The position numbers were made by a program, and so were the translations under genes. The notes beneath the pieces were generated by a model. The model was not told where the DNA came from. It saw only the letters and a program-made list of their open reading frames with translations, and did not search any database. Below, one piece after another: positions 6,959 through 34,249 of a DNA stretch of 64,000 nucleotides. How positions within the stretch are numbered: position 1 is the first letter of the stretch; each line of letters begins with the position of its first letter. The DNA comes from Mobula hypostoma (taxonomy: Eukaryota): positions 5,270,001-5,334,000 of the forward strand of contig NC_086097.1 in the NCBI RefSeq assembly GCF_963921235.1. The letters are read 5' to 3'.

Positions 6959-7659
6959 AACAGACCTTAAAAACATCCGATTATCGAAGAGCCCAGTTTG
7001 TTTCAAAGTATTGTAAAAGTCGATGCCTTAATGGTTAGTTAAAATATAGCTGATCATAAGAAAAAAAACTCAGAAGTAATGGAGCGAGTCAAGAACACGA
7101 CTTCACTGCATGAGCTCTACTGGAAGTCCCCGAATGACTTTCATGTTCTTTCTTTGTTTTACAGCTATCTGGAGAATACAAATTTCAGATTATATGTATC
7201 TGTAGTTTGATAATAAATGAATCTTTGAACTTTTGAACGTTTTATGCATTGTGACTGACTTTGAGACTGGTGTGGATGCTAAGTAACCTCTTCCCTGATG
7301 GGAGTGGGACAAACAGCCTGTGAACAGGGTATGTGGGATCCTTCATGATATTACTGTCATCATAGGGATTGGGATGAAAGGAAAACATTGGTATTCTTCT
7401 CCAAAAACTGCTTTAACTTGTCTGGCTACATTGGGGCAAACTTTCCCCTCAAATGCCATCAATGTGCGTGAGGTGCATAGTGCTGAGTGCAATGCACCTC
7501 CAAAACCTTGGAAGATATTGCGCCTTAGAAGATGGCAACCCAGAGCAAGGACATGGCAGTTTGTACTTCCTGGCTAAGGTGATTCATTCTCTTCACTCTA
7601 GCTGGATGAGCTTTCGGATACCTGAGATGATTGCAGACCCCGTTGCTCAAGTTGACCAT

Positions 7660-7925
7660 TGAACAGGAAAGAATACAGCACACTGCAGGTCCTTTGGCCC
7701 ATGGTATTATGCCAACCTTTAAACCTACTCTAAGATCAATCTATCCCTTCTCTCCTACAGAACCTCCCATTTTCCTCACTTCCATGTGCCTATCTAAGCA
7801 TCTCTTAAATGTCCCGAATATATCTGCCACCACTGCTACCCTTGGCAACACATTCCATGCACCCACAACTAACTCTGACATCCCCCCTGTACTTTCCTCC
7901 AATCACCTCAGAATATGCTCCCTCT
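7660..7925 (-). mobile_element. CR1 3' end fragment
   Basis: Resembles other CR1 3' tails in the window (ggcaacacattccatgcacccac). Confidence 0.6.
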
Positions 7926-10420
7926 TATTACAAAGAGTTCAAGGATTGCAGGTGGGAAGACTCTAGCTGAGGATTGTTTGTTGATGAAATATATTTTTGC
8001 AATAAGAGATTATATAAGCAACATCTATCATGCTGCCCCAGAAGCCGAGCTGCCTTTGTGTGTGTGTATGTTATCTGCAGGAAGGGACAGGGCAGAATTT
8101 CCCAAAACATGTAGGAGGTACCCCTTTATGTTTAGCATTCAGTTTGTAGATCAAGTGTTACTGGAAAGACATGGATGATTTGAAATTATATGCTCCTTCT
8201 TCAGTAAAGCTAAAGCCATTAATACAAATAATAGAACTCCTTTCTAAAGATACAAACAGGAACTTTGGACTGGATAAATTCAGAACATTAAAGATAAAGA
8301 AAGGTGCAATAGAGCTAGGAGAATACAGAGCAGCAGGATACAATACAACCGATGGATGAATATGAAACATATTAGTATCTGAGATATCAACAGGCAAAGA
8401 AAATAGATCAGACTGTGAGAAAGAGGAATCTTTAAACAGAATTTACTTCAAAGCTCTGCCAAATAGAGCTCAGTGGTGAAAATGTAACAAGGGCAATAAA
8501 CACTTCTGCAATATACATATTAAAGTATTCTATTGGTATAACATCTTGGTCCAAAACCAATCTGGAAAATTTACAAAGAACAGCAAGAAATGAAACAAAT
8601 TTCAGAAAACATTATTGACACCACCTAGGAGAGAAGGGGAAGAAGAATAACAGACATTAAAAATCTATGCAAATGTTAGATAAACTTTTAAGGATATATC
8701 GTCATCAATGAAGACAGGACTCAGCACTCCATGCAAGCATATGCAATTCTGATAAGAATTACACACCACTGAACTTAAATGATAGCACAACCCAGAAAAA
8801 TGAAGAAATTATCACTGGAGAATTAGTTAACCAGTGGAAGAGCATGATCCTCAATGGAAGACATCCCTGCAATCTGAACAGACTAGATGTTGAGAATCAA
8901 GAGTTGGAGATTTCATCCCAGAAACAGAAGGATTCCTTGTAGCAATACAGAACCAAGTGATTAACACAAAAAATGATCAAAAGTACATAATAAAACACCT
9001 ACAAATTCAAGACGGTAAATGCAGAAAATGCCAAGTGAATCCAGAAACAATCTAACAGATTACAGGATCCTGCAGCAGTTTAACTCAGTCTGATTACTTA
9101 CACAGGCATAATCAAGTGGCAAACATCATTCACCAAAATATTGCTTTAAAGTACAAATTCATAAAAGAACCATTCCTTTCTATAAATACAAGCCTGATCC
9201 AGTGTTAGAGTCAGAATCCCACAAGTTATATTATGAACAATCTGTTATTACAGACATGACCGTCCATAATAACCATCTGGATATAATAATACAGGATAAA
9301 CAAACATGAACAACTTATTTGATAGATATAGCCATTCCAAACTCACAAAACATACAGAAATGAAACCTCTGCAGATCGCGTATCGTCCCAACCGCTCAAC
9401 AGATGACACCATCGCCACCACCCGCCACCTGGCCCTCACCCACCTGGACAAAAAAGATACGTACGTTCAAATGCTGTTCATAGATTTCAGTTCAGCATTC
9501 AACACAATCATTCCTCAGAAACTGATTGGAAAGCTGAGCCTACTGGGCCTGAACGCCTCCCTCTGCAATGGGATCCTAGACATCCTGACTGGGAGACCTC
9601 AGTCAGTCTGGATTGGAAGCAGCATCTCCAACACCATCACACTGAGCATGGGCCCCCCCCCCCCAGGGCTGTGTGCTCAGTCCACTGCTGTTCACTCTGC
9701 TGACCCATGACTGTTCTGCAACACACAGCTCGAACCACATCATCAAGTTCGCCGATGACATGACTGTGGTGGGTCTCATCAGCAAGAACGATGAGTCAGC
9801 ATACAGAGAGGAGGTGCAGCGACTAACGGACTGGTGCAGAGCCAACAACCTGTCTCTGAATGTGAACAAAACAAAAGAGATGGTTGTTGACTTCAAGAAA
9901 GCATGGTGCAACCACTCTCTGCTGAACATTGACGGCTCCTCCATTGAGATCATTAAGAGCATCAAATTTCTTGGTGTTCACCTGACAGAGATTGTCACCT
10001 GGTCTCTCAACACCAGCTCCATAGCCAAGGAAGCACAGCAGCGTCTCTACTTTCTGCGAAGGCTGAGAAAAGTCCATCTCCCTCCCCCCATCCTCACCAC
10101 ATTCTACAGAGGATGTATCGAGAGCATCCTGAGCAGCTGCATCACTGCCTGGTTCAGAAATTGCACCATCTCGGATCGCAAGACCCTGCAGTGGATAGTG
10201 AGGTCAGCTGAGAAGATCATTGGGGTCTCCCTTCTCGCCATTACAGACATTTACACCACACACTGCACCCACAAAGCTAACAATATTGTGAAGGACCCCT
10301 CTCACCCCTCATACAAACTCTTCTCCCTCCTGCCATCTGGCAAAAGGTACTGAAGCACTCAGGCTCTCATGACCAGACTGTGCAACAGGTTCTTTCTCCA
10401 AGCCATCAGACTCCTTAATA

Positions 10421-10487
10421 AACAACATACATCAAAGTTGCTGGTGAACGCAGCAGGCCAAGCAGCATCTATAGGAAGAGGCGCGGT
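10421..10487 (-). mobile_element. 67-bp Penelope-like terminal fragment inserted in Rex1
   Basis: Matches about 57320-57385; TSD CTTAATA at 10414-10420 and 10488-10494. Confidence 0.8.
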
Positions 10488-10604
10488 CTTAATACCCAGA
10501 GTCTAGACTGACATCTACATCATTTATTATTATATAGTAATCTGTCCTCTACTGTGCCTATTGTCTTGTTTATTAATTATTGTACTGCCCTGCACTGATT
10601 TGTG

Positions 10605-10725
10605 CACTTTATGTAGTCCTGTGTAGGTCTGTAGTCTAGTGTAGTTTTTGTGTTGTTTTACGTAGTCTAGTGTAGCCCTGTGCTGTCTCACATAGTCTAG
10701 TGTAATTTTGTGTTGTTTCATGTAG
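10605..10725 (+). repeat. Short tandem array (about 30-bp unit, gtagtctagtgtag...) in the Rex1 3' UTR
   Basis: Three imperfect copies of tagtctagtgta(g/a)...tgtg(t/c)tgt. Confidence 0.75.
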
Positions 10726-10939
10726 CACCAGGAGGAACATTGTTTCATTTTTATTGTGTACTGTACCAGCAGCTTATGGTCAAAATGACAATAAAAAGCA
10801 ACTTGACTAGACTTGAAATCAATAAAGGGAATACACCAGAAAAATGCTGAACTAAAAGAGGAAATTGAAAGATAATGGGACATGAACAAGGTATACATTG
10901 TCTCATCTTGAGCTGAAAAAACATAAATAATAACAATAA

Positions 10940-11535
10940 TGTCCTTATTGAGCATTTTTCATACAGACAATGTATTTCAAATTGCTTTACAATGGGCTAA
11001 AGTACAAACTTGTAAATAAAAGACAAAAAGATGTCAGTTAAAATTAACATTAAATCAATAGGTTTTGAGCTGGTGTTTAAAAGCGTCAGTTGAGTCCTCA
11101 TCCCTTATAGTTTTAGGTGTTGAGTTCCACAGTTTAGGAGCGTAGTTCTAAAAAGCTGACCTGCCAACTTTATTTTGAAGGAGATTGTTTAAATGTAAGA
11201 GACTGGTGGAAGAAGACCTGAGAGCTTGAGCAGGATTATAAAACAAAAGTGATTCTGTGATGCGCTCCAGTCCCAGACCATTGAGAGCTTTAAATCAAGT
11301 AAGAGAACTTTAAAATCAATTCTAAAAAATACAGGAAGCCGGAGTAGAGTAGTTAGGATGGGAGTGAAATTCTCCCTAATGTGGTTTTAGTTTCACAGTC
11401 TAGCAGCGGCAGTTTGAATGAGATGATGATTGTCGATCGATTGCTTCGGAAGGCCAGTAAAATGTGCATTGCAGTAATCTAGTCTATTCAAGATAAAGGT
11501 GTGAATAATATCACAACATTCGCAATAGGTATTCA
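10940..11535 (-). mobile_element. L2 LINE 3' fragment
   Basis: IIHTFILNRLDYCNAHFTGLP..LIQTAAARL is the typical L2 C-terminal motif. Confidence 0.85.
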
Positions 11536-11947
11536 GTATTTGAGACAATGGGAATTGACCGGATGGGTAACAAGCCGCTCTGACCTCGGGATCTTGGTGG
11601 GTCAGGTAGAACCCAGGTGTTGGCCAGTGCGTGGGACTGGAGTCCAGAATGCAAGGAAGCAACCTGCAGTGAATGCAGAAGGATTTCAGCGCTCTGAAGT
11701 TTTATGGAGAAGGCTTCACCTGGGAATGGTTGATTTGGTGACGTGGATTTCATGTTATGTCACCGTACAGTGGTGGAGAGCTTGGGTCAGAAGATGAAAG
11801 AATGTCAGAATTAGAATCACAATCAGATTTAATATCACTGACATATGTTGTGAAATACATTGTTTTGCAGCAGCTGTACAGTGCAATACATAATAATAAA
11901 AAACTATACATTACAATAGAAATATATATACACTGAACACACACATA

Positions 11948-14509: not shown

Positions 14510-15320
14510 AAAAAAACATAGAAACAGAGAAAATAGGTGCAGGAGTAGGCCCTTCGGCCCTTCGAGCCTGCACTGCCATTCGGTATGATCATGGCTGATC
14601 ATCCAACTCAGAACCCTGTTCTGTTGCAAGGACATGGCTGGGGATGAACCCAAGTGCAGGACACAGATGCTGAGGCAGAGTCATTAGACATAGCCCCTTC
14701 ACGAACGGGGAGTCAATATCCAGGAGACGAAGCGAAGCTTAGAACTAACAGTTCTCAGGAATAGGAAACAGGGTTTGCTCTCACGAGAGTCAACCAACAA
14801 ACTGGCGGCTTCTTGCTGTGGTTGCAGGGTTTTTATCTTGCTGTTTGATGGGAAGCAGGTGCGTGTAGTTAGTGGTACTTGGGAATGATTGGAATTTAAA
14901 TAAGGTGATTGAGGCCCAAATCTTGAGGCAAATGGCAAGGTGGGGGATTGCCAGGCGGAACCATGACATGTACCTGCTTTCTCTCCATACCCGCGATCCC
15001 TTTAGCCACAAGGGCCATATCTAACTCCCTCTTAAATATAGCCAATGAACTGACCTCAACTGTTTCCTGTGGCAGAGAATTCCACAGATTCACCACTCTC
15101 TGTGTGAAGAAGTTTTTCCTCATCTCGGTCCTAAAAGGCTTCCCCTTTATCCTTAAACTGTGACCCCTCGTTCTGGACTTCCCCAACATCAGGAACAATC
15201 TTCCTGCATCTAGCCTGTCCAATCCCTTTAGAATTTTATATGTTTCAATAAGATCCCTCCTCAATCTTCTAAATTCCAGCGAGTATAAGCCTAGTCGATC
15301 CAGTCTTTCTTCATATGAAA
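14510..15320 (-). mobile_element. CR1 3' fragment (young subfamily) inserted in Rex1
   Basis: SYEERLDRLGLYSLEFRRLRRDLIETYKI...FFTQRVVNLWNSLP; (tttctatg)-type tail; possible TSD GTTT at 14506-14509 and 15321-15324. Confidence 0.92.
14622..14968 (-). mobile_element. Solo LTR inserted in the CR1 3' UTR
   Basis: TGT...ACA termini; 5-bp TSD TGTTC/TGTAC (14617-14621, 14969-14973); the CR1 tail is continuous once it is removed (compare 55650-55700). Confidence 0.75.
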
Positions 15321-16249
15321 GTTTCGCGGTTATTGATGGTTTTGCAAAGTTCATTGAGAGCCAGCTTGGTATTGGACTGTGGTGGGATGTACACAGCTGC
15401 AATAATAACAGACGTGAATTCTCTGGACAGCCAGAAAGGTCGACATAGCAGCACAAGGAACTCCAGATCTGGAGAGCACAAGGCTTTGTGGGCGTGCGCA
15501 CTACCTGGGTCACACTAAGTGTTGTTCACCATGAAACATACTCCTCCACCTTTACATTTCCCGGAGAGATCTTTAGACCTGTCTGCTCGGAACACAGAGA
15601 ACCCAATGGGTTCGATGGCTTGGTCTGGCATTTCCTCTGCCAACCAGGTTTCAGTGAAGCATAAGCAGTGCTTTGTTTCCCATTGGTAGGATATTCTGGC
15701 TCTCAGCTCACATAACTTGTTGTCCACTGACTGTATGTTAGCCAGGAGTATGCTTGGGAGTGGCAGGCCGATGTGCATGCCGTCTTAACCTAACCAAGAG
15801 GCTGCCTCTTCTTCCTCACCTCTGGCAATGGTTCCTCGGCAGTACCGGTGTGGTGAATGAACCTCCCATGCTTTGTGCGAGCTAGGAGTCCCACTGGTAG
15901 AAAGCAAAACTTAATGATTAAATGCCATCTTTCCGATGTTCAAAAGAGTCGGTCAATCATACCTAATGTGACTTTCAACTTCTTGTAAAAGGAGTGCAGA
16001 AAGAAAGAGAGATAAACAGAAAATTACAATGCCAATTCGGAGTACACAACATGGCTGCTGTGCACGGCGCCATCTTGGCAGATTCAATGATCAGCCTTCT
16101 GGCAGCTCCTGCAGCCAATCTGGTGCCAAACACATTGCTTCACATTCCTTTGGACTACACCGGTGAGGCTGAGAGTGGGATCTTAATGACTGGGCATCCC
16201 AGGATCTCTTTACCTTCCACACAGGCTGACCAACAGCTCACATCCACTA

Positions 16250-16830
16250 TCCTTCGAGACAGATGCCATCATCATTATGTATGTATATTAAATAGTTAAA
16301 TTAAAAATAGTGCAAAAAACAGAAATAATAGAAAAGCGAGGTAGGGTTCGTGGGTTTAATGTCCATTTAGGAATCAGATGGCAGAGGAAAGGAAGCTGTT
16401 CCTGAATTGCTGGGTGTGTGCCCTCAGGCTTCTTCACCTCCTAGCTGATGGTAACAACGTGAAGTGGGCATGACCTGGGTTATCTGGGTCCTTAATGGAT
16501 GCCATCTTTCTGAGGCATTACTCCTTGAAGATTTCTTAGGTACTATGGAGACGAGTACCCAAGATAGAGCTGACTAATTTTGCAACTTTTCTGTAGCTTC
16601 TTTCAATCCCGTGCGTTGCATCTCCACCCCAAACCAGATAGTGATGCAACCTATCAGAATGGTCTGCACGTTACATCTCTAGAACTTTGAGAGTTTTTTA
16701 GTTGACAAACCAAATCTCCTCAAACTCCTAATGAAATATAACCGCTGTCCTGTCTTCTTTATAGCTGCATTGAAATATTGTGTCCAAGTTAGGTCCTCAG
16801 ATCTTTACACCCAGGAACTTGAAATTTCTT
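16250..16830 (-). mobile_element. Rex1-type 3' fragment, degenerate
   Basis: Reverse complement of FKFLGV..SEDLTW and QRLYF-like motifs. Confidence 0.7.
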
Positions 16831-18129
16831 ATTCTTTCCAGATGGTTCTGAGTTTGGAGCAGAGGGATAGGAAAATACTGTTAAAACTACCTTTGCTAAT
16901 GCGGACCAGTGCCAACCCTGACTCTTCTCCAAGTTATCATCAATTGGCAGTTGATGTGGCAATTGCTTATTTTTCTAGTCCATTAGTTAAATCGTTATAG
17001 GATCTTGATGATATCATCAATGCCCAGTTTTACCCTCTGAGTTCCCTAAGTTTCTCCTTCGTTTTCTGTGTGATGTGGAAAGATGAAGGGGCTGGTTCAT
17101 GTACCTCCAAAGGTGGGTGGCACCCTGTGATTTGCATAGGGTAAAACCGAATAGGGAGGGTCACTGTTGTCACGTACAGCCAAGATCAGGGAAAGAATGA
17201 AGATTTCTTTAAGGCAATTAAATCTCAAGTCATTACGATTGTCCAGGTTTCATCATATGACTGTGGACTGGGCTTTCAGAATGACAAAATAGTTCACTCT
17301 GTTCAAGGATGAAAGATTGGGAAATAAGTATCAGTGAGACCATAAGACATAGAATAGTACAGTGCAGGAACCAACCCTTCAGCCTACAATGTTGTGCTGA
17401 ACCAAATACATTAGTAACTAAACTAATCCCTCATACCTACACAATGTCCACTTCCCTCCACTTCCCTTTCATTCGTGTCCTTTATCTGCCTCTGCACCAA
17501 CTTCCCTTTTGGAGTTGAGCTGTTACACCAGCTGTATGCGCTGGTGTGAACTGTAGTCTCGAAGGTGCACAGCAGTTAGGGCGTGTCATGTATGGCCAAA
17601 TCAAGGCTGTGGGGCCTGTGTCCGAGAGCAGGGGATGTTGTGTATTTAATATTTCAATAATATTTGAGTAATCTCCTATATATATATATATAGGTTGATC
17701 AAGCATTCATGCTAATTTAAATAATTCATCAGGGGTTATATGCATAAATACGAGAAATGCATACATCATCACACTACCACATGATACATGCACATCCCAC
17801 TTAAAGTAAACACAAAGTTAGACCCATACTTTCAGATTCCCTTGTCTTCCTTTTCATTAGTTTAATGTTTTGAAGTTAGAAAACATTATATTGGCAGAGG
17901 TATTTTTAAAATGAACCTAAGATGGCTATCAACCTTTTGAAGCACAGGGAGATGTTCATGCTAAAAGAAGTTCAGCAAGGAACATAGAGTTAAAAAAAAG
18001 CCACGCTGCTTGTGACCGTCAGATGGGAAGACATGATTGAGTTAAAAAAGTCAGAAAATTGAAGATTTCAACGGTTCATAAAAAGTGAGTATCGGGTGAT
18101 AATAATCATAAAAAATCAGAAGGGTTGAT

Positions 18130-19340
18130 TACACAACAGGTAACTGTCTTATGTATACTGAGTTAATTTAACAATATTTTGATGAAAATGAAATAGCCAA
18201 TGAGAAATGAGTACCAATTTTGCTGAATGCATTAGGTCTAGAAGCATACAGTTTGCTTCAAAGTTCAACTGCTCCACCACACCAGCAGAAATGAGAATTG
18301 TTGATATTGTCAAGGTAACGTAGAAACATTTAGAATGAAAGTGATTGTCAATTGCAGAATATTTTAGGTTTCATAAGTGGAATTTGAAAAAAAGAGCAGT
18401 ACATTTCAGTGTAAATGGCTCCATTGAAGAGATTTTCTGAGCATTGTCAGTTCAGTCATGGGCTTATTGATACACTGAGAGATCATTCAGTTTGTGGAAT
18501 CTGGCAAGAAAGCATTCAAAAACAACTCCTAACTGAAGCGCCACTTACATTCAAGAGAGCAGTCAAACTTGCTGTTTCAATGGAAACCGCAGATAGAGAT
18601 TCAGTTGAGTTGCAGTCAGGAATGAAGGTGAGCGTCCACTAAATTGCAACAGAAGTTGGCCTGACCAAACAAGTTGTGTAACTGTTGTGGCAGGTGCTCA
18701 CATGCATCAGGCCGATGCAGATTTAAAGGTGAAACTTGCAAAAACTGCAACAAAGTAGAACACAAACAAAGAGCTTTTTGGGCAGACAAAAGTAAATTGA
18801 ATGTATAGGGAAGAGAAGAAGTTAAAAAGCCAAGTTGCAGTTTTCAAAAAGAGCACTAATCTGAACACTTCTGATGAAAAATCTGATAATAATGAAAGTA
18901 ACACAGGATTGTGTAGACTTGAGAATTATAGTGAAAACAAACAACAGACAAGCAATATAACTTCTGGTAGAAGTGAATGGCAATTAAATTGAAATGGAAA
19001 TAGACACTGGTTCAGCTGTTTCGGTCATTCCACAAAATGAGTCTGAATGGCATTTCAAAAATATTGAACTGAAGCCTGCAGATTTCCAACTCGGAACTTA
19101 TACTGGAGAAAAGATATCTCCTGTGGGAATGACATTCATAACAGTGAAATACAACAACCAAAAGCCACATTGTGCTTGTATGTGGTAAAAACAAGACAAC
19201 CAGCAATGTGGAGACATGATTGGCTGAGGCAACTACACCTGGATTGGAGATCCATCCACTATTTTCATGTCGCATCCCCTGCAATAAAGCCAATTGAAAG
19301 TGAATTTAAAAAAGTTCTGTATGATGCCACAACTGTCTAC
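18130..19340 (+). pseudogene. Gypsy gag-protease remnant
   Basis: QYFDENEIANEK.VPILLNALG; LKRFSEHCQF..LRDHSVCGI..IQKQLLTE..LTFKRAV; two degenerate CCHC knuckles at about 18671-18778; MEIDTGSAVSVI aspartic protease; RHDWLRQL. Confidence 0.9.
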
Positions 19341-19382
19341 ATGCTAAACATCATGAACTATTCCCCAGCAGAGGACAAACAG

Positions 19383-20142
19383 GTGTCGGTGTGGACCTCT
19401 GTGCCTCTGGTCGAAAAGTATATTGGATAACGGAAGGACAGAAGGGCAACGCTGCTCAGAGGAATCGTGAAAAGTGATGAAAACAGTAGTCCAACTACAA
19501 CAGTTTTTGTTGTCAACATGTCTGAGAAAGCTTCCGAAATATTAATCTTAGAACATAGAACATAAAAAATCTACAGCACATCGCATTCCTTTTGGCCCAC
19601 AATGTTGTACTGACCATGTAACCTACTCTAGAAACTGCCTAGGATTTCCCTACTGCATAGCCGTCTGATTTTCTAAGCTCCATGTACCTACCTAAGAGTC
19701 CCTTAAAAGACCTTATTGTATCCACCTCTACCACTGTCACTGGCAGTGCATTCCATGCACCTACCACTCTCAGTAATTCCTTGTGAAATATTGCTTGGTT
19801 TTAAGCTAGAAGAGAGTTCAAGGAGCTTCAGAAAAGTTGTGAGCATTCAGCTTTTGAGTTAAGGTTATTGTATAAACTTCAAATGGCAGACAAAAAAGCT
19901 GCTTGTAAAAGTAAATGCAAAGACCAAACCCCAGCTCAATGAAAGGAAGTCCAAAAAGAAAGGAATCAATGGAGATACGAAAACAGAATTTCTCAGAAGA
20001 TGGCATCGATGAGGAAAGCTCGAGAAGAGATCAGATCATAACGGGAGCGATAGGAGTATTAATAAGAGAATACTCCAGTGAACTAAATTCACCTTCCAAA
20101 GATCAAGATGCGCAAACTAGAAGAAAAGAAAGAGAAGAAAGG
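19383..20142 (+). pseudogene. RBM25: Processed (intronless) fragment of RNA-binding protein 25, RRM region, inside the Gypsy element; split by a CR1 insertion
   Basis: SDENSSPTTTVFVVNMSEKASEILI / LVKYCLVLS*KRVQGASEKL*AFSF / LRLLYKLQMADK, KLLVKVNAKTKPQLNERKSKKKG / DEESSRRDQIITGAIGVLIREYSSELNSPS match recalled vertebrate RBM25 (DENCGPTTTVFVGNISEKASDMLIRQLLAKCGLVLSWKRVQGASGKLQAFGF...KKLLVKVDAKTKAQLDEWK...RRDQMIKGAIEVLIREYSSELNAPS). Confidence 0.93.
19549..19772 (-). mobile_element. CR1 3' end inserted into the RBM25 fragment
   Basis: agaacatagaacata tail; ggcagtgcattccatgcacctaccactct; RBM25 homology resumes immediately after. Confidence 0.85.
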
Positions 20143-20330
20143 CATAGAGAGCTGTCAAAACCACGTTCTGCAGTCTCAGAGTCAACTCCTACAACCACCA
20201 CGAGGAGCGCCCAGAACCAGGGGTTGTTTTCACAGTCACAAGTCTCACCTGCCAAGCAGAGTGACACCCCTTGTCATGACAGTAGTTAGCCCACAGGAGT
20301 AAGAAAGTCTCCGCAATGATTAAATCTTTA
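20143..20330 (+). pseudogene. Gypsy pol C-terminal tail (post-integrase)
   Basis: Pro/Ser/Thr-rich stretch ending SS*PTGVRKSPQ*LNL, a decayed RRYPxRxRxPPxRL motif, just upstream of the 3' LTR. Confidence 0.7.
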
Positions 20331-20557
20331 CACCTGAATGGGACAATTTAAAAATACACTATGTTGTAGATATCTATATATAGTAGTTGTATTATATAGT
20401 AAAATGTGTGCACAGTTATATTGAGTTTGAGTTTATAGCACAGTACAGTGGAGTGTTGTGTATTTAATATTTTAAAAATATTTGAGTAATCGTACATATA
20501 TACTGTATTGGCTGATTAAGCATTATAGTTCATTTTAATAATTTATTACTGGCTATA

Positions 20558-21902
20558 CAGTATTCAGCCCCCACCCCCTTGGAGCTTTCATGTCTTATCG
20601 TCTTACAACATTGAATCACAGTGGATTCAATTTGGCTTTTTTGACACTGATCAACAGAAAAGGGACTCTTCCGTTTCAAAGTGAAAACAGATCTCTACAA
20701 AGTGAGCTCAATAAATTATAAATATATAACACAAAATAACTGATTGCATAAGTATTCGCCCCTTTAATATGACACACCAAATCCTCACTGGTGTGGCCAT
20801 CTGGTTTTAGAAGTCACATAATTAGTTAAAAGGAGATCTGTTTTTGGAGACCCATGTGCAGTCAACGTGTTTCAAATGACTGTAGTAAAAATACACCTCT
20901 ATCTGGAAGGTCCAACTGCTGGTGAGTCAGTATCCTGGCAAAAACGACACCATGGAGACAAAAGAACACTCCATGCAATTCCACGAAAAGATTGTTGAAA
21001 AGCACAAGTAAGGAGATGGATAGAAGAAAATTTCCAAGATACTGAATATTCCTTGGAGTATAGTTAAGTTGGCTGGAGTTTGCCAGAAGGCATGTGGGAG
21101 ACTCTGAGGTCAGCTGAAAGAAAGTTCTACAGTCTGATGAAACCAAAATTGAGCTTTTTGGCCATCAGACTAAACGCAATGTTTGGCATAAGCAAAACAC
21201 CTCACATCATCAAAAATACACCATCCCTACCGTGAAGCACGATGGTGCTGCATCATGTTGGGAGATACTTCCCTACAACAGGCCCTGGAAAGCTTGTGAA
21301 GGTAGATGGTAAAATGAATGCAACGAAATACAGGGAAATCCAGGAGGAATACCTGATGCAGTCTGCAAGAGAACCACAACTTGGGAGAAGATTTTTGTTT
21401 TCCAGCAAGACAATGACCCCAAGCATAAAGCCAAAGCTACAAAGTTAATGTCTTGGAGTGGCCAAGTCAGAATCCAGACCTCTATCCAATCGAGAATTTG
21501 TGGCTGGACCTGAAAAAGGCTGTTCACTCACGATCCCCATGCAATTTGGCAGAGCTTAAGCAGTTTTGTAAAGAAGAATGGGGAAATATTGAAGTGTCCA
21601 GATATGCAAAGCTGATAGAGACCTATCCACACAGACTCAAGGCTGTAATTGCTGCCAAAGGTTCATCTACCAAATACTGACTTGTAGGAAGTGAGTAATT
21701 ATGCAATCAATTATTTTGTGTTTAGTAATTACAATGAATTTACATCAATCCATAGAAATTTGTTTTCATTTTGACACAGAAGAGTCTTTTCTGTTGATCA
21801 GTGTCAAAAAAATCCAAATTAAATCCATTGTGATTCAATGTTGTAAAACAGTAAAACATGAAGATTTCTGTGGAGGAGGGTGAATACTTTCTATAGGCAC
21901 TA
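20558..21902 (+). mobile_element. Tc1-family DNA transposon, decayed, inserted in the Gypsy 3' LTR
   Basis: Long (about 200 bp) imperfect TIRs, TA on both flanks; SDETKIELFG, PTVKH, QQDNDPKHKAK, EWPSQNPDLYPIENLW (DD34E type). Confidence 0.93.
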
Positions 21903-22009
21903 TATGTATAAATAATTAATACTATGTGATACGTGTGCACCTCACTTAAAGTAAACATGGAATTAGACCTGCATTTTCAAACTCTCTTGTCTCCTTTTGA
22001 ATTAATTTG

Positions 22010-22438
22010 AATTAATTGGGTCTTTATTCTTTGCAGCGTAGAAGGTTGGGGGGGACTTGATAAAGGTATTTAAAATTATGAGGGGGATGGATAGAGTTGT
22101 CGTGGATAGGCTTTTTCCATTGAGAGTGGGGGAAATTCAAACAAGAGGACATGAGTTGAGAGTTAAAGGGCAAAAGTTTAGGGGTAACATGAGGGGGAAC
22201 TTTACTCAGAGAGTGGTAGCTGTGTGGAACGAGCTTCCAGCAGAAGTGGTAGAGACAGGTTCGATGTTGTCATTTAAAGTTAAATTGGATAGATATATGG
22301 ACAGGAAAGGAATGAAGGGTTATGGGCTGAGTGCAGGTCGGTGGGACTAGGTGAGAGTAAGAGTTCGGCATGGACTAGAAGGGCCAAGATGGCCTGTTTC
22401 CGTGCTGTAATTGTTAAATGGTTATATGGTTATTTGGT
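22010..22438 (+). mobile_element. CR1 3' fragment inserted in the Gypsy 3' LTR
   Basis: IKVFKIMRGMDRV..TRGHELRV..FTQRVVAVWNELP; (tatatggt)n tail. Confidence 0.9.
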
Positions 22439-23589
22439 TAATTCAATGTTTTGAAATTACAAAACATAACAGAGAACAAGCCAAAGTTTGGCCATTGAAG
22501 CAGACTTGTAGGCGATTAAAAGTGGCAGAACTGAGGTGAGGCAGATTCGAGGCAGCGTGGCCCATGCCTGAGAGTAAGGAACAAGCTGATGTTTAACAAA
22601 TTTAAGCAGCGGACCGAATTGTATGGGCGAAACAAAGTGGTGGTTTCCAGGCCAAGGGCATACCTAAATGGTAGGGCCCACATCCGAGAGCAAGGTATGA
22701 CCAGAGGTTTGGATAATTTCAGTGCCGAGTGAGATTGAAAAGGTCAGAGTGTCAGGGTCAGAGGCAAGGGGCAGAGCAGTTCAGCTCACTGCTCACGAGG
22801 TTTACTCATCTCTGCACTGCAGTGAGGTTGAGCTCTGCAACTAACGGGCTCCTGGATCATCAGCTTTTGGTTTCATGGCTGTGGACTCTCTTTTGTAAAC
22901 TTCAGTTCTAAGTATTACTTGCTTACTTTTATTGCTTACATGACTTGCTTTTCCCTGCATGGTTTGACCTTTTTTTAATGGGTTCTACTGAGTTTCTTTG
23001 TTTTGTGGCAATCTAAGGAGGCGAATCTCAAGGTTGTGTAAAGTATACACACTCTAGTAATAAATGTACTTTGAACAATTATAATGGACAGAAAGCTGCA
23101 GAAAGTGGTGGACTCAGGTCATGTGATTAAAGAGAGAGACAGAAATATTAAACAGAATTACAATTTCTAACACTAATTATCTTTTTGAAGGACTGAGATT
23201 CCACTTGTTATGTTATTTTTTTAAGGTCAGAGAGGTGGTTGGCACTTAATTATCACACTGTGGAAAACTCATTCGGAACTGTGGCTCTTTGCTTTCTCAC
23301 TCATTTCAATGCAGAACTATAGGCCAGTATTATACAGTCACAACATTATTTCCTGTCAGTGCTGTGTCTGTCTCCAAGATCTGGAACAGAACGTCCTGCT
23401 CAGAAGTGAAGTTCATCTGCCAGATACGTCCAGTTTTCCATTTGTATTGTGGCATAATTCTCATTAGTTTAATTTCATGTAGAAATGAGCACTGTTAATC
23501 CAACCACTATTCGTATTGCAAACTATATCACATTGTTAACTTTCATTAGTAATCCTAGAAGGTTGCATTTTCTATGTTGACACATAAAT

Positions 23590-24035
23590 GCACATAGGGC
23601 GTTTGTGATGTCCAGGGAGGGGTAACACCTGTGGTGAAGGGGTTTGACATGTCCTTCCTGGGGCATCTGCCACACCCTGGTACACCAATTCAACAGACAG
23701 ACTAAACTGGGTGAGGGTAGCTGGCGGCCTCATAACCCAGTGAGATGGGGACATACTTGTCCTAGCACGTGAAGTCAGCTCCGGTGGACTGGGCAGATGA
23801 GATCTCCAGTGAGATCCACTGGCCAGGAAGTTGGTACTGCAACGCTCCATGGAGAGCGAAGGACATGACAGGGCACAGAAGGTCACCCGCTGCAACCAAA
23901 GAAGACTGCAGTTTGTAATGCTCGCTTGTATCAGTGGACCTGGATTTCTGAGGTTGAGAGACTGGAACCACCCCAGTGTAACGGCTTTTCTATTTTAAAA
24001 ACTTTCCCGCATAGGCTTCCTGTCATCTTTGGGCA
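23590..24035 (+). mobile_element. RTE-related 5' UTR / SINE-like repeat
   Basis: gggaggggtaacacc...ggtgaagggg start and cctagcacgtgaagtcagctcc resemble recalled RTE 5' sequences. Confidence 0.45.
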
Positions 24036-24774
24036 ACCACCTCCACCAATTAAATTCTGTCTTGCAAAAAGGAAATTGTTCATTATTGTTAGAAATGATA
24101 TGGAAGATGTGTGGCTCCAGTGGTTAATGGCTGAATGAGTTGCTCTCTGATCTTGGCAATTTATTTGTGAGCGAATACGCGGCTTGCAAGAGAATTCCTA
24201 GAAGCATGGTTTTCCATGAAGAATCCTGTAAGCAAACACACAGATCACATTTATGAGCCGATGTGGGCAAAATTGCAGACTACAACGCAGAAAGTTTGTC
24301 ACGCAGCCAGTCAGCGATGAGATTTCCTCCACACATCACGACTGAGTTTCTGAAATGACGTCCAATGAGCTGATTGAAAAGTATATAAAGACTAAGCATT
24401 TGAAGGACACACTACATTCGACAGTGCACTGAAGATGTATTCTCGCTTGGTTATTATTGCTTTACAAATGGGGGTTGAGAAAGAAAATTAAACTCTTTTA
24501 CTTTTCCAGTCTCCATTACTGAGGAGTATCAAAGTGATGAATTATATGCTATCAGCATTTGTGAATCAGGTCAGTATACTTACTATCAAAGTCTATCTGC
24601 TACAATCATTTTATCTTTCAATTTTAACGTCTCTGAAAGTGCATCCTGCTTCAGTTTGTGTTTCAGGTAGAAAGTTTTCTTTTCTTACTTAAATGGCCCA
24701 CCAGGATTTGAGGATGATATTCTCCCGCTTTGATTCTGCGGGTTCTAAGGTGGCCTAAGGTTGCTGTAGCCATG

Positions 24775-25170
24775 AGTGGTAATGGGGATGAGCTCTCACT
24801 ACCTATTAAATGCTCCCATTCGCATGCATCTCAAATCTGACAACAAAGTCCAGCTCCTGGCCTTCACGTGTAGCAGAACCATTTCTACTGACAGGAGAAA
24901 GGGGCAAAGGCAGGTTACGGGTGCTTTAAAACCAGTCACTTCAGGCAGATGGGGTTCCTCAGCCGTGGTTGGCAGCTCATCTAGGAGAAGGAAAACTCTA
25001 ATCTCAAACCTCTGCTGCCCGCATGGAGAAGGGGAGCCTGTTGCATGTGTAACAGCTTGCTCTCTATAATGTACTGCCCTGCTTGCTTATTGGCTTGTGT
25101 ATCAACTTAGATAGCCAGGACGTAACTTCCATGGTTGACCCTGACCAACTGATGCCAAGAAAAAGGTGGC
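24775..25170 (+). mobile_element. RTE-related SINE-like repeat
   Basis: ggcagctcatctaggagaaggaaaactct...caaacctctgctgcc motif typical of RTE 5' regions (recalled). Confidence 0.5.
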
Positions 25171-25307
25171 CGATGAGTACTATATTTCCAAGAGCAGAAC
25201 CTATCACAGGTCAGATTAATGGTGCTTTGAAGGGGATGTGGTCTGGGAGGTGATGACGCTGTCTGCCAATTCCTTTGTTCTTCTACATGCAGAGCAACTG
25301 AGATTCT

Positions 25308-25980
25308 CATCAACGGCAGCACGCGCGGCCTCTCTGGTGAATGAATGATATCTGTAATCTGTCAAGTAGGGGACCGTGCACAATTCAGATTTGATGGAGA
25401 CGGATGTGAGAGTATGGAGGAACATCTGGAAAACTTCTGAAATGTCCACTTCGCTGCCGCTGCTACTGTGTGGTAACCGGAATCTCCGGAGCTGAAGGCC
25501 CCGAAATCCTCAGCTTTGCGTGTTTCAGCTGCCGGGATGAGGTCGAAGGTGCCCGGCAGAGGATGGCGCTCGGGAGGCTGTATTGGAGTGGCTGGTCGGA
25601 GGCTCGAAGTTTTTGGACGGACGAACTCAGTGTCAGCTGTGGTCAGCTGCTTCCAAGGCATCGGCAAGTTGATGGTGCCTGGAGGTTTATGGCAGGAAGT
25701 TTCTCCCTTTTGCTGCCTGCTATCGGGGACTCGGGAGTCGATCGACTCAGGGACTTTGAGACTATTTTTACCGTGCCCATGGTTTGTTCTTCATCAAATT
25801 ATGTATTGTTTTGCACTGCTGTAACTATATGTTATAATTATGTGGTTCGGTCAGTGTTAGTCTTTGGTTTGTTATGTTTTCTGTGATATCACTCCGGAGA
25901 AACATTGTATCATTTCTTAATGCATGTAAGCATTTCTAAATGACAATAAAAGAGGACTGAGTGTTCTCATAATCTAATCT
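25308..25980 (+). mobile_element. CpG-rich non-coding retroposon with a Rex1-like 3' tail
   Basis: Tail ccggagaaacattgtatcattt...aaatgacaataaaa resembles the Rex1 tail at 10728-10800; (taatc)n end. Confidence 0.6.
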
Positions 25981-26164
25981 CCAATGCTTCTTCTCCAGTT
26001 TCAACATTTAGGGACCAAGCATTCCTAAGAGTCAGTGGGAATTATGAGGAGCTTTGATAACACCCTCAAATCCTTTCTACTGTCCACTTTCCCTGCTCAC
26101 CATTCAGACCATCTACAAGGAGTGCTCCGTGTGGATGTACAATGGTGGAGAGGGCTTTACCTGT

Positions 26165-26650
26165 GGCAACACACACAAAATTCTGGAGGAACCCAACAGG
26201 CCAGGCTGCATCTGTGGAAAGAAATAAACTGTTGACATTTCAGGCTGAGAACCTTCATCAGGACTGGAAAAAAGATGAGAAGTTGGAGTGAGAAACTGGG
26301 GGAGGGGAAGAAGAAATACAAGGTGGCAGGTGAAACCAGGAGAGAGCAAGTGGGTGAAGTAAAGAGCTGGGAAGTTGATTAGTAGAAGAGATAAAGGGCA
26401 GGAGAAGGGGGAATCTGATAGGAGAAGGTAGAAGACTGAGGAAGAAAGGGAAAGGGGAGGAGCACCAGAGGGGGATGATGGGCAGGTAAGGAAAAAGGTG
26501 AGAGAGGGAAACAGGAATGGGGAACTGGGAAGAAGAAGAGTGGGAGGACATGACCAGAAGTTTGAGAAATCGATGTTCGTGCCCTTAAGTTAGAGGCTAC
26601 GCAGCTGGAAAAATGGGAAAAAGTTTCTCCTCTAACCTTAGTGTGTGGCC
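26165..26650 (-). mobile_element. Penelope-like element 3'/pLTR fragment with degenerate hammerhead motif
   Basis: Minus strand cagtcCTGATGAaggttctcagcctGAAAtgtc at 26229-26266; pyrimidine-rich tract; aacatcgatttctcaaacttc ORF end. Confidence 0.75.
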
Positions 26651-27445
26651 GCAGAGGGCTTTACCTAATATCGACTGAGCCACATCTATTACTTTTTGTA
26701 GGATTTTCCAGTTGAGGGCGTTGGTGTTTCCATACCAGCCTGTGATGCAGCCAGTCAATACACTGTCCACCACACATCTACAGAAGTTGGTTAAAGTTTT
26801 AGATGTCATGCCAAATCTTCACAAAATTCTAAGTTGAGGCACTGCCATGTTCCCTTCGTAACTGCACTTACATGCTGGGCACGGAACGGGTCGTTCCTCC
26901 TTGGTCCTGCTGATATTGAGTAAGGCTGCTGATGGAGAATGTGGAGATGTTTTGATTTGACAGAGTTCATTTTTGATGATCTATTTTGGGGAATTGTAGT
27001 TGGACATATGAATGATGCTGAATGCCCAAGAATCAGGATCAAGTTTAATATCATTGGGATATGCTGTGAAATTTGTCGTTTTGCATCAGCCATACAGTGC
27101 AATACATAATAAAAATACAATAAATTAGAAGTATATAGAAGGAAAGAAGTATTACAAAAAGGGAGGGGAACAATTAAGGTAATGTTCATGAGTTCACTGT
27201 CTATTAGAAATCTGATGGTAGATGGGTGTGTCTTCAGGCTCCCGTACCTCCTTCTTGGTGGCAACAATGAGAAGAGAACGTCTGCAAGGTGATGGGGATC
27301 GTTTATGAAGGATGCCGCCTTTTCTGAGGCATCGCCTTTTGAAGATGTCCTCGATGACGGGGAGGTAACTTCCATGATGGAGCTGGCTGAGTTTACAACT
27401 TTCTGCAGACTTTTCTGATCCTGTGCAGTAAACCCTCCATACCAG
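26650..27445 (-). mobile_element. Two tandem Rex1-type 3' fragments
   Basis: KTLTNFCRCVVDSVLTGCITGWYGN; KAASFINDPHH..LFSLLP..RRYGSLKT. Confidence 0.8.
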
Positions 27446-28039
27446 AGAAATGGCTGTATGTAATTAACACCTCAGAGAAGAAGATGATACTCTTTGTGAA
27501 TTTGCAGGATTCATGGAGAAATTACTATTTTTCTTCCTACTTAAGTGCAGAAACTGGTTATTTAAACTGTAGCAGCAGCAAGAACCACATTGACTGATTG
27601 TTCAAAGTATCTTTCACTCACACCTGCCTGCAAAATCTAGCACAAATCGTAGCATATGATAGAATAACTAACATCTGACTAAGTCGTCACAAGAATTGAT
27701 TGTTAAAGTATCTTTGGATAGGACAGATTAGAATCTGCCAACATGCCCCTTGAGCTTTCTTCAACCTCAGTCATGGTCGACCTGCATCCAATCGACCTGC
27801 CTTTGTTTCACATTCTCAGAAGTTAACGTCATTCTGGGGAATTTGTTTTTCTGAGCTGATTTTCATTTCAAAGAAGTTAACTGATGACTGGTGCAATCTC
27901 TGTTGTCAGTAAAGTAAGTGTTAGTAGAAAAGAGCCATCTGGGCCTGTCACTCAAGATCTCTGGACCATAAGACTATAAAATATTGGAGCAGGATTACAC
28001 TATCTGGCCTATCGTGTCTGCTGTAAACATCTTTGCAAA

Positions 28040-29780
28040 CACTTTCCACAAGACCATTAAAAGCGTCAGACACAGGAGCAGAATGAGTCAGTTTGTCCCT
28101 TGAGTCTGTTCCGCCATTTGATCATGGCTGATTTATTTTTCCACCAAAATCAATTCTCTTGCCTTCTCCCCATAACCTTTGACACCTTACTTCAAGAACG
28201 TAACAAATTCTGCTTTAAATATATCAAATGAATTGCCCTACACTGTCGCCTATGGCAATGAATTCAATAGATTCACTATCCTCTGGTTAAAGAAATTCCA
28301 CCTGATTTCTTACCTCAAGGGATGTCCTTCTATTCTGAGGTTGTGCCCTTTGATCTCATACTGTAAGAGACATCTTCTTCACATCCATTATATCTAAGTC
28401 TGTCAATATTCAGTAAGTTTCAAAGTAAGTTTCTCATTCATCTAAACTCTAGTGAGTGCAGGCCCAGAACCATCAAACATTCCTTTTACATTAACTGTTT
28501 AGTTTCCAGAATCATTCTCATAAACCTCCCCTGGACCCTCTCCAATGCCAGCACATCTGTCCTTAGGTATGGAGCACCAAACTGCTCACAATATTCCAAG
28601 TGTGGTCTGACCAACACCTTATAAAGCCTCAGTATTGCATCCTTTCTTTTATATTCTAGTCATCTCAAAATGAATGCTAACATTGCATTTGCCTTCCTTA
28701 CCACTGACTCATCGGCAAGTTAATCTTTAGGGGATCCTGAAAAAGACTCCCAAGACCCTTTGCACCTCCAATTTCTGAATTTGTTCCCTGATTAGAAATT
28801 TGTCTAAGCCTTTATTCCTTCTACCAAAGTGTATGATCATACACTTGCATTGCATTCCATCTGCCACTTTGCCCAATCCTCCTAAACTGTCCATGTCCTT
28901 CCATAGCCTCTCTGTGTCCTCAAAGCTACCTGCCCTCCACTTATTTTGCATCATCCACAAACTTGGCTACAAAGTAATCAATTCCGTCATCCATATCATT
29001 GTCATATAATGTGAGTAGTAGCTGACCCAACGTTGATTCCTGCGGAACACCACTAGTTACTGGCAAACATCAGAACCATACTGGTTGTGATTAGATCCTC
29101 TTTATTCCCACACTTTGCCTCCTGCCAGTCAGCCAAGCTTCTACGTATCTTCCCTGCAACATCTACCACCCCACCAGCCTCCGGGTCCAACATATTATTC
29201 TCCGTAACTTCCGCCACCTCCAACGGGATCCCACCACTAAGCACATCTTTCCCCCCCATCCCTCCCCACTGATCTCCCTCCTGGCACTTATCCATGTAAT
29301 GGTTGTGATTAGATCCTCTTTATTCCCACACTTTGCCTCCTGCCAGTCAGCCAAGCTTCTATGTATCTTCCCTGCAACATCTTGTGCTCTTATCTTGTTT
29401 AGCAACCACACCTTGTCAAAAATGCAAATAAGCAACATCCACTGACTCTCCTTTGTCCAAACTGCCTATTATTTCCTCAAAGAATCCCAACAGATTTGTC
29501 AGCAAAGATTTCTCCTTAAACAAACCATGCAGACTTTGGCATATTTGATTGTGTTCCTCCAACTACCTCAAAACGTCATTCTTAATAATGCACCCTAACA
29601 TCTTCCCAGCCACTGACGTCAACCCAATTTCCTGTCTGTTGCCTCCCTTCCTTCTTAAAGAGTGGAGTGACATTTCCAATTTTACCGTCCTCAGGAACCA
29701 TGTCAGAATCTGGAGATACTTGTAAAATCATTACTAATGCCTCCATGATCTATTCAGCCACCTCTTTCAGAACCCCAGAA
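28040..29780 (-). mobile_element. CR1 LINE, degenerate RT to 3' end
   Basis: KCMIIHFGRRNK, VQRVLGV, LVRPHLEYC, VPQEST motifs on the minus strand. Confidence 0.88.
29165..29299 (+). mobile_element. Internal Penelope-like ORF fragment flanked by an 83-bp direct duplication
   Basis: Encodes YHPTSLRVQHIILRNFRHLQRDPTTKHIFP and PTDLPPGTYPC; 29082-29164 is repeated at 29300-29382 with one mismatch. Confidence 0.8.
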
Positions 29781-30749
29781 AAGGCATATGAATAGAGTTG
29801 CTGAGTCACAGTTAAGTTTTATGCATTAACTAATTGAAAGATTTGGTAACAGAGTGTTGTAATGACTCAGGAATAATACTGTGGCACAGGTTACCTCCTT
29901 AAGCAAGAGTGGGTCGGAGGAATCCTCATCCTTTCCGCTGTGCAGTCAATGACCTTTTCTGATAAATATCTCTAAATGTTCAGACATTTCTGAGTCTCCC
30001 AGCCCTATAAGTGCAATATAAGGGCATTAAAGTGGAGCTACTGTATAAATCACAGTGGAGTGATTCCTAAAGTGCCTGCTAAGAATATTGCACTGGAATC
30101 AACAAAGTACCAATAACAATTATTCTTCGACTGCCCTGGTTATCACTTGTATTGTGTCAGTCAATATAACGGAACCACAAAGTGCCATCATTCCAGTGAG
30201 TTATAGCATGTCTTTAAGTCTCCTGTAATATTCCTGAAAATGTATGATTTTCACACATGCTTGAGGGACTCTTGAGAGTTACATGTACATAAATGCCTGA
30301 CTTGCTCCAGTATCTTATGGTTGTTTCTCCTGGGGTTCAAAAATCAACAATGAAATTAACTCATTTACATATGTTCTGGTATTTCATGTGCCTTCAATCT
30401 GTCTTCCACCTATAACCCTGCCTTTAAAGTATGCAGTGATCTGATAGTTGAGTGTATTAGATCAAGTGACGGTGGCCACATTTGACACTTGCCTTATTTT
30501 CCCAGCTGACAGAACACCAATAATCTCCAAAAATGAACAAAAGGAGACTAGGGAAAGATCACTGAACACATGAAATTTCTCATGACGAAGCAGCAGGGGT
30601 TTGGATGTAAAGCTCCCATTCGTGTTACCAGTTTCGTCTGTTCTTTCTCATAAAGGCTAATAGGCTTTCCCTTGCTTCAATGGAGGCCTGCAATAATGTA
30701 TAACCTGCTACCTTCACTTGCAATAAAAAGGGAGTTTAGAAGAGTGACG

Positions 30750-31030
30750 ACACGGTAGTATAGTGGTTAGCGCAACGTTTTGCAATGCAGGCTTTGAGGG
30801 TTCAATTCCTACTGCTGCCTGTAAGGAATTTGTACTTTCTCCCTGTGACCACGTGGGTCTCTCTGGGTGCTCCAGTTTCCTCCCACAGTCCAAGGACGGA
30901 CTGGTCGGCAGGTTAATTGGTTATTGTAAATTGTCCTGTGATTCGGCTAGGGTTAAATAGATGGGTTGCTGGGCAGTGTGGCTCATTGGGCCAGAAGGAC
31001 CTGTTATGCACTGTATCACAATTAATCAAT
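30750..31030 (+). mobile_element. HE1/V-SINE-type tRNA-derived SINE
   Basis: cacggtag..tagtggttagc A box, ggttcaattcc B box, gtttgtactttctccc..gggtgctccagtttcctcccacagtccaa V-domain. Confidence 0.8.
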
Positions 31031-31509
31031 TAATGAACTAATTTCCTATGATCATCTGTTATGAACTTCTTAGCTAAAGCAAAGCTGTAGAAATCCTTGA
31101 TTTACTCGCTGTATTTTTTTTCTTTCACTCTCTCTCTCTTTCTTTTTCTTTATTTTCCTTCTCTTTCACTGCTTCTTTCTCTTCTTTTTCTACAGTCCAA
31201 AGACACACCGACTAGTAGGTTAAGTGTAAGTTGTCCCACGATTAGGATAGGATTAAATTGCGGGGTTACTGAGTGGCATGGCTTGTGTGGTCGGAAGGAC
31301 CAGTTCCGTGCTGTATCTCAATAGACTAGCAAAAAGAATGAAGTAGGATATCATAGCATCCTACCAAATATGGGAAGTCTTAATGTTCAGGCAGTCTTTT
31401 CAGCAGCGGAAGAGTCCAGGAACAGAGGGCACATTCTCAGAATAGAAGAACACTTTATAGTATTCAGAACTCAGCATTAAATCGAACAGTTTTAGAGAAT
31501 TGGTAGAAT

Positions 31510-33875: not shown

Positions 33876-34249
33876 GTAATCAAGCATTCTGTTTCTGTTT
33901 TTCATGTTTTAATTTGTCACGTCTCTATTACATTTGACCATGTTCTTCTGCTCATATTTCCATCGCTTTCAGATAAAGCAAGAGTTCCCAACTGATTTCA
34001 TGCCATGGACCAATACTATTAAGCCAGGGGTCTGCGTACCCTAGGCTGGGAAGCCCCGATCTAGAACTTTGTCATCTCCTTCAGCTGAAACATCATCAGT
34101 TGTGTCACTCAATGGTCTCTAGACCTTCCCGTTACCTCTCCCTGCAACTTTGAAAATCTTTTCTTAGTTCTGATGAAATGCCATTATTGTCAAACATTAG
34201 CTCTATTTCTCTAACATGTTTTCATATCAATAGTTACTTCTCTGGGTGG

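Follow-up and report, generated by a model that had tools for sequence, protein, structure and literature searches.

The DNA analysed here is a window of 64,000 nucleotides (nt) from Mobula hypostoma (contig NC_086097.1, positions 5,270,001 to 5,334,000), a stretch of eukaryotic DNA rich in transposable elements. At 17636-22471, on the plus strand, the window holds an old, decayed long terminal repeat (LTR) element that is broken up by three later transposon inserts. Both LTRs are present, with remnants of gag and protease and a short coding tail that belongs to the element itself. Between the protease and the tail, in place of reverse transcriptase (RT), RNase H and integrase, lies a stretch of coding sequence derived from the gene for the splicing factor RBM25. 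The RBM25-like part is present in many copies, and several of these join it to the same element parts.

The RBM25-derived stretch and its host element

The RBM25-derived sequence was found in two parts, both on the plus strand. Part 1 (19398-19548) covers the region before the RNA recognition motif (RRM) and the start of the RRM, corresponding to residues 19-65 of the matching protein P0034. Part 2 (19772-20147) covers the rest of the RRM, the downstream helix and an exon end rich in lysine and glutamate (K/E), corresponding to residues 69 to about 205. With tblastn and a frame-aware alignment, seven collinear pieces of the window in three frames were matched to residues 19-206 of P0034, and 95 of the 155 aligned residues were identical. 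The stretch contains stops, its frame is broken in three or more places (near 19473, 19893 and 19978-19990), and about 11-12 residues, CEYKEPESTLR(A), are lost at about 19860. An earlier interpretation of this DNA, here called the sequence-only reading, had described the middle segment as the RRM and downstream helix of RBM25 with stops, frameshifts and a short deletion, and the alignment agrees with it. One candidate placing was rejected: a first frame-aware alignment had put 'KEPESTLRA' on 19832-19858, which was spurious; tblastn puts 19780-19860 on the RRM.

The extent of the stretch had to be revised in part. The sequence-only reading began it at 19383 and had it split by an insert of the CR1 type; the split stands, whereas likeness to RBM25 5' of 19398 was not supported, as 86 of 500 shuffled sequences reached the observed score between there and about 19340. 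The interval 19340-19397 on the plus strand is therefore treated as a junction zone, in which the element passes into RBM25.

The open reading frame (ORF) at 19915-20286 was searched exhaustively against 1.84 billion representative proteins with a threshold of E ≤1e-3. In total 42 matches were obtained (best E 5.6e-12), of which 40 were RBM25-like and the other two were unrelated proteins. RBM25, the gene that had been proposed, is thus also the best protein match. The RBM25-like matches cover query residues 10-96 and none of them reaches the tail. Four of the longer matches were scanned with Pfam, and P0034 (257 amino acids) was the sole positive, with RRM_1 at residues 51-119 (E 4.2e-10). 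In UniRef, P0042 is called 'RNA-binding protein 25' and P0036 'RRM domain-containing protein', and every RBM25-like match bearing a name comes from a vertebrate. In the Atlas, the RBM25 piece gave no usable match.

The same matches provided information on exon structure. Most of the RBM25-like matches (33 of 40) are short genomic ORFs that hold one exon, reading '...LDEE...KKE[ED]' and followed by V, as at a GT donor. Homology in this exon mostly begins right after Q or K, as at an AG acceptor, 10-16 residues before 'LDEE'. Four of the 40 matches go on with 'xDIN', the next exon, and the longer matches read '...KKxxxNG' contiguously upstream of the exon. The window is uninterrupted across the upstream boundary of this exon, with '...KKKGING' running directly into 'DTKTEF...', and at least this one junction is therefore spliced. 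As the sequence-only reading had supposed, the segment extends beyond a single exon and is intron-free wherever a test was possible: it crosses at least one exon-exon junction that is conserved in the RBM25 of other vertebrates.

Upstream of the RBM25 stretch, a gag remnant with broken frames (18200-18810, plus strand) was assigned by motif and position, with two CCHC-type zinc knuckles in 18665-18805. It is followed by a protease remnant (18923-19340, plus strand) that has DTGS in 18988-19185, changes frame and then goes on in the frame of ORF 19068-19427. For the protease piece, the ten best named Atlas clusters all belonged to the retropepsin clan (score 0.94, 181 shared features). Pfam gave nothing significant on the short, broken gag and protease pieces, with zf-CCHC_4 appearing only at E 0.76. 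The motif pattern of gag and protease looks Gypsy-like, a putative class. Downstream of the RBM25 stretch, the element's own 3' coding tail (20148-20289, plus strand) ends at the stop at 20287-20289; it had no match among the 1.84 billion representatives and may be the C-terminal tail of pol.

It was further found that none of the 73 stop-free pieces of at least 35 amino acids from both strands of 17636-22471 matched RT, RNase H or integrase in Pfam. The lone family match among them was DDE_3 (21429-21677, E 4.9e-4, below the Pfam cut-off), which lies in a nested Tc1-like insert. Outside the inserts, only about 900 bp of DNA extend from the protease end to the 3' LTR, which is too little space for RT, RNase H and integrase. 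The earlier claim that this core is missing between protease and tail was thus upheld. Protein searches for relatives with the RBM25/tail ORF, the protease-junction ORF and the protease core returned no match, which is weak evidence, and a sequence search of the PDB with three pieces gave nothing or chance matches (E ≥0.07).

The two LTRs are aligned over 253 letters, of which 198 are identical (78.3%), at a Kimura two-parameter (K2P) distance of 0.26. The 5' LTR lies at 17636-17890 on the plus strand, whereas the 3' LTR on the same strand is divided into piece a at 20454-20557 (81.8% over 110 letters), piece b at 21904 to about 22012 (73.1% over 108 letters) and piece c at 22433-22471 (82.9% over 35 letters). 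The ends follow the TG...CA pattern, with TG at 17636 and 20454 and CA at 22470-22471; the 5' LTR ends in TA. With this LTR pair and the two zinc knuckles, the retention of both LTRs and gag that had been noted before is borne out. If the LTRs run TG...CA, a candidate target-site duplication flanks the element, GGGGA at 17631-17635 and GAGAA at 22472-22476, a pair that is plausible but weak when taken alone. Directly after the 5' LTR lies a site resembling a primer-binding site (17891-17905, plus strand), which starts TTGG and may resemble the complement of the 3' end of initiator tRNA-Met. A tRNA scan found no tRNA gene in the window, and no clear polypurine tract was seen before 20454. A non-coding stretch on the plus strand (20290-20453) separates the coding tail from the 3' LTR. 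In 16000-24000, the sole Rfam match scored 19.9 bits against a long non-coding RNA model with a gathering score of 90 and was taken as chance.

Copies, age and later inserts

Next, public contigs of four sequencing runs were aligned to 17400-20600 at 80% likeness. Run X1 is DNA of organism A and run X5 is DNA of organism B, while X15 and X17 are guessed to be RNA of organism A and of organism F. In total 46,359 X1 contigs and 41,877 X5 contigs aligned, and the individual contig records given below are among 32 of about 97,800 pieces listed.

Contigs with a letter other than that of the window were counted at four places in the RBM25-like part. At 19513 there were 95 in X1, 109 in X5 and 21 in X17; at 19929 the counts were 111, 108 and 34, at 19937 they were 98, 102 and 27, and at 20054 they were 115, 114 and 38. 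The 95-115 distinct X1 contigs per place are more than a single-copy gene together with this locus can give. The RBM25-like part is therefore multi-copy in organisms A and B and in the X17 run (organism F), that is, under at least three species labels. The summed depth of the pure RBM25 bins was 3609-11783 in X1, as compared to 11-12 for four exact-match contigs of the locus, and 17547-36950 in the RBM25 bins of X5, as compared to 32-65 for near-identical contigs. Taken at face value this looks like hundreds of RBM25-bearing copies, a rough figure, as summed depth is not a copy number. Elsewhere in the element the depth was 49326-75373 in the protease bins, 26525 (X1) in the tail and 4096-38271 in the gag bins (18149-18790). 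The several-fold higher depth of the protease and the tail is consistent with the RBM25-bearing form being one part of a larger family.

Several copies join the RBM25 part to the same flanking element parts as in the window. Among the matches listed, X15 record 16 (19966-20262, 47 differences) spans the 3' join in another copy, and the stretch from the protease to 19386-19390 is covered by X15 record 14 and by X17 records 23 and 24. In X5, contigs join 19264 to 19395 (one contig, with 30 other letters between) and 20075 to 20230, with short other sequence between, so that parts of RBM25 and of the element stand in one contig. At the 5' junction the summed depth in X1 falls from 16870 (19219-19325) to 3609 (19326-19432). 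The guess of the sequence-only reading that the locus belongs to a non-autonomous family gains support, as the RBM25 part is multi-copy and other copies, too, have it next to these element parts.

The outer boundary of the family could also be placed with these contigs. In X1, 757 contigs fit from 17636 on, and the sequences before it differ from one contig to the next (agreement 0.34); the start of the LTR is thereby fixed, and many insertion sites are indicated. Near the other end, 20354-20449 is missing from other copies: contigs join 20353 to 20450 (six in X1, two in X5), or 20353 to 17636 (two in X1, four in X5 and one in X17). This segment of 96 nt, AT-rich and just 5' of the 3' LTR, is either private to the lineage of this copy or deleted in the others. 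In the leader after the 5' LTR, the summed X1 depth of 17935-18041 is only 322, far below that of the adjacent LTR and gag, and several contigs jump over 17887-18072 or 17895-18124; this leader seems specific to a small subfamily.

Between the window and four X5 records (25, 27, 28 and 32), 35 of 1171 letters are different (3.0%). Record 25 spans the junction of the left flank with the LTR, and one of the four contigs includes the start of the insert in the RBM25 stretch, which derives from a long interspersed element (LINE). The same insertion, LINE included, is thus present in organism B at about 97% identity. The K2P distance between the LTRs is about nine times the divergence between A and B at this locus, which makes the insertion far older than the A-B split. 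The dating by LTR divergence that had been suggested for this element thus yields an age beyond that split.

Three inserts were found in the element. A CR1-like LINE 3' fragment of 223 bp (19549-19771) splits the RBM25 stretch and lies antisense, on the minus strand. It has 68-69% matches elsewhere in the window, at 7654-7870 (plus) and 37554-37766 (minus), the latter over a LINE C-terminal ORF, and its depth in X1 is 266,000-461,000. Contigs of all four runs lack it, joining 19533 to 19780 or 19534 to 19786, so that this LINE fragment arrived later than the capture of RBM25. Three X5 contigs have differing short sequences between the two sides of the insert, one of which translates to RBM25-like residues. 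The sequence-only reading had recognised this CR1 insert; as a correction, the 3' LTR also holds two further inserts. The first is a Tc1-like DNA transposon (20558-21903, plus strand) with inverted ends of about 225 bp (20535-20757 against 21919-21693, 77%). The second is another LINE 3' fragment (22013-22432, plus strand), in which ORF 22042-22347 resembles LINE C-termini. It is flanked on both sides by a copy of the same 15 or so LTR letters, with 17852-17866 aligning both to 21998-22012 and to 22433-22447.

LINE sequence recurs in and around the element. The same kind of LINE 3' fragment was inserted into it twice, antisense at 19549-19771 and sense at about 22013-22432. One LINE C-terminal ORF, with the motif 'LYSLEFRR...GDLIE', occurs in the window at least five times, at 14896-15525, 33376-33780, 37210-37674, 45999-46601 and 55667-56131. 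A LINE on the minus strand (1923-7027) has long open stretches, with ORFs of 356, 129, 189, 210 and 297 amino acids that resemble endonuclease and reverse transcriptase; two upstream ORFs of 168 and 139 amino acids are open as well, and it is far less decayed than the RBM25-bearing element. On the plus strand, 38803-39453 holds an open stretch of 216 amino acids, which may resemble the middle of a hAT/ZBED-type transposase-derived protein. With regard to the flanks, a unit of about 29 nt at the end of the left flank (17609-17637) recurs at 22555-22583 and 22671-22699, 116 nt apart and with 62-76% identity, which indicates that the element sits inside another repeated sequence. The depth in the flank bins was 265 as compared to about 11.5, above single copy.

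Origin of the RBM25 fragment

We consider it probable that the fragment is an LTR-mediated retrocopy that was made by template switching of reverse transcriptase and then spread as a non-autonomous family. An LTR element's reverse transcriptase, copying its own RNA inside a virus-like particle, would have jumped to a spliced RBM25 mRNA packaged in the same particle and afterwards returned to the element RNA. In this way some 560 nt coding for RBM25 residues 19-205 or so (the pre-RRM region, the RRM and the following helix) would have taken the place of RT, RNase H and integrase, in a chimera that still had its two LTRs, the primer-binding region, gag, protease and the 3' tail. With these parts kept, autonomous relatives could have transcribed, packaged, reverse-transcribed and integrated the chimera in trans. 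It would then have multiplied to the apparent hundreds of copies. The present copy was later struck by two LINE fragments and a Tc1-like transposon and decayed.

Both joins lie inside open stretches in this copy (ORFs 19068-19427 and 19915-20286). At the 3' join, 37 X17 contigs fit from 20148 on and have other sequence before it (consensus agreement 0.59). In that upstream consensus, where agreement is only 0.59, an 11-letter purine run is held in common with 20131-20141, where the window has the K/E codons that close the RBM25 exon. The run is a possible microsimilarity that may have guided the template switch at this join, and it could explain why RBM25 likeness stops near the exon end without any splicing.

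A number of observations weigh against template switching or limit how far it can be taken. RBM25 likeness gives out at about 20140-20147, no more than some 7 nt from the conserved exon end, and a breakpoint so near to an exon end is not predicted by a random template switch. The other join can be placed no more closely than somewhere in 19340-19398, given the shuffling result. The exon positions are taken from the RBM25 of other vertebrates and not from the host's own gene. Few bridging copies are documented among the 32 pieces listed, and at 80% likeness some contigs could come from the host gene or from other RBM25 retrocopies. The target-site duplication is imperfect, as GGGGA and GAGAA match at three of five letters; both differences are G/A, and a decay of about 13% per LTR could explain them. 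No RT, integrase or autonomous partner was seen, so that membership in the Gypsy superfamily and the identity of the tail as the pol end are putative.

The position of the 3' join would fit a splice-assisted transduction of the kind proposed in the classical model of oncogene capture. The element would have lain in an RBM25 intron 3' of the '...KKEE' exon, and a host read-through transcript would have been spliced from the donor of this exon into the 3' part of the element. The 5' junction would then stem from one non-homologous switch of template involving normal element RNA. The exon end in question is defined by 33 of the 40 matches, a chance breakpoint that near to it would occur in fewer than one in ten cases by a rough reckoning, and excerpts of PMC5131818 cite 3' transduction as an alternative route (Swain and Coffin 1992). 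However, the X17 consensus before 20148 is purine-rich, has no polypyrimidine tract with AG and would be a poor acceptor, and the 11-letter microsimilarity with the K/E codons accounts for the coincidence without splicing. We regard this route as rather unlikely.

An origin at the level of DNA appears very unlikely. It could have come about by ectopic recombination or end-joining of an RBM25 processed pseudogene into a deleted element, or by recombination between two elements flanking such a pseudogene. The imperfect target-site duplication would suit such an event, and the LTRs are very diverged, as those of recombinant elements can be. Yet neither junction has filler that is foreign to both the element and RBM25, the open frames are kept at both joins, and the same architecture in other copies and species indicates that the chimera was mobile as a unit.

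It was also considered whether the captured piece is a selected module that helped the family. Its RRM and helix would have been kept in frame, perhaps in a fusion of Gag, protease and RRM able to bind RNA or to disturb host RBM25. This copy has both junctions in frame, the RBM25-bearing depth (3609-11783, as compared to 4096-38271 in the gag bins) amounts to a large share of the family, and at several RBM25 places most other copies differ from the window, so that the defects seen here are partly private. However, of 1063 depth units near 19470 only 181 (15 X1 contigs) come from contigs that lack a letter there, so that most copies have the frame break, and no intact chimeric ORF was found among the 1.84 billion representatives. 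A selected module is accordingly judged highly improbable. Very doubtful, too, is the wider proposal that an RRM-helix fused in frame behind gag and protease drove the success of the family, for instance through binding or packaging of its own RNA or a weakening of the host's control of splicing, or that hundreds of RBM25-homologous copies feed small RNAs acting on host RBM25. The shared frame break argues for a passenger, and this is most likely what the RBM25 piece is.

Least probable of all, to the point of deserving hardly any credit, is a LINE-type processed pseudogene, in which a LINE retroposed RBM25 mRNA into an element already without pol, followed by spread or duplication of the chimera. 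The window is rich in LINEs, and this element itself received two LINE fragments, but LINE retrocopies start at the 3' end of the mRNA, and this fragment stops at about residue 205 of a protein that we take to exceed 800 amino acids, lacks the 3' three quarters of the mRNA and any LINE-type tail, and is joined to the element inside open stretches of the element's own frames. Around the RBM25 stretch we found neither poly(A) nor a flanking duplication, the marks by which the sequence-only reading would have recognised an L1-type processed pseudogene. Together with the end at about residue 205, this leaves a LINE-mediated origin without support, and LTR-mediated template switching remains the explanation we favour.

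Comparison with known systems

This kind of capture is known; what differs here is the parental gene, RBM25, and the apparent scale and age of the amplification. Literature searches, judged by titles and listings, gave no account of an RBM25-bearing retrotransposon. Documented LTR-mediated captures in animals are mostly young and single- or few-copy. If a captured fragment of a splicing factor is indeed present in about hundreds of copies across related vertebrates, such chimeras can become successful non-autonomous families. The scattered RRM-coding pieces can mislead gene prediction and the calling of RBM25 orthologues, and the family offers raw material for exon shuffling and a dated marker family for the lineage.

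In acutely transforming retroviruses host exons replace replication genes, and the defective genome needs a helper. The element described here resembles them in having host exons in place of replication genes and in its presumed dependence on a helper. It differs in being fixed in the germ line and in carrying a fragment of a splicing factor without evidence of an effect on the host.

ETn/MusD, LARD and TRIM are non-autonomous LTR elements that are mobilised in trans. According to excerpts of PMC5131818, MaLR is likewise mobilised in trans by MERVL. As in all these elements, the LTRs and signals in cis are kept here while the enzymes are lost, and copies can outnumber those of the helper. In contrast to the present element, their interior holds no recognisable host coding sequence.

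Host-gene pieces inside LTR elements have also been described, and the statements that follow rest on excerpts of the papers cited. Bs1 of maize carries exonic pieces of host genes inside an LTR element (PMC5131818), and as here, an element with host exon pieces still transposed. However, Bs1 belongs to a plant, draws on three parental genes and has one to five copies, whereas the present case concerns a vertebrate, one parental gene and far more copies. In crocodilians, endogenous retroviruses were found with captured mRNAs of KIT-ligand (9 copies) and nectin3 (6 copies) (Chong et al. 2014, PMC4299795). These share with our element a vertebrate host, replication after the mRNA had been captured, a capture that preceded a species split and small deletions in the captured part of some copies. 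They are retroviruses with complete ORFs and signs of purifying selection, whereas here there is a fragment with broken frames, no env and many more copies.

LTR-mediated retroposition has been described for flies, mosquito, zebrafish, chicken and mammals, with an architecture that includes microsimilarity at the junctions and secondary retroposition (Tan et al. 2016, Genome Res 26:1663, PMC5131818). As in those loci, a partial, intron-free host mRNA replaces an internal part of the ORF between both LTRs, poly(A) is lacking, and the product was re-retroposed as a non-autonomous element; microsimilarity at the 3' join is possibly present here too. The examples of Tan et al. are of recent origin, with one insertion site or a few, whereas the RBM25-bearing element is old (K2P 0.26) and occurs in apparent hundreds of copies in several species.

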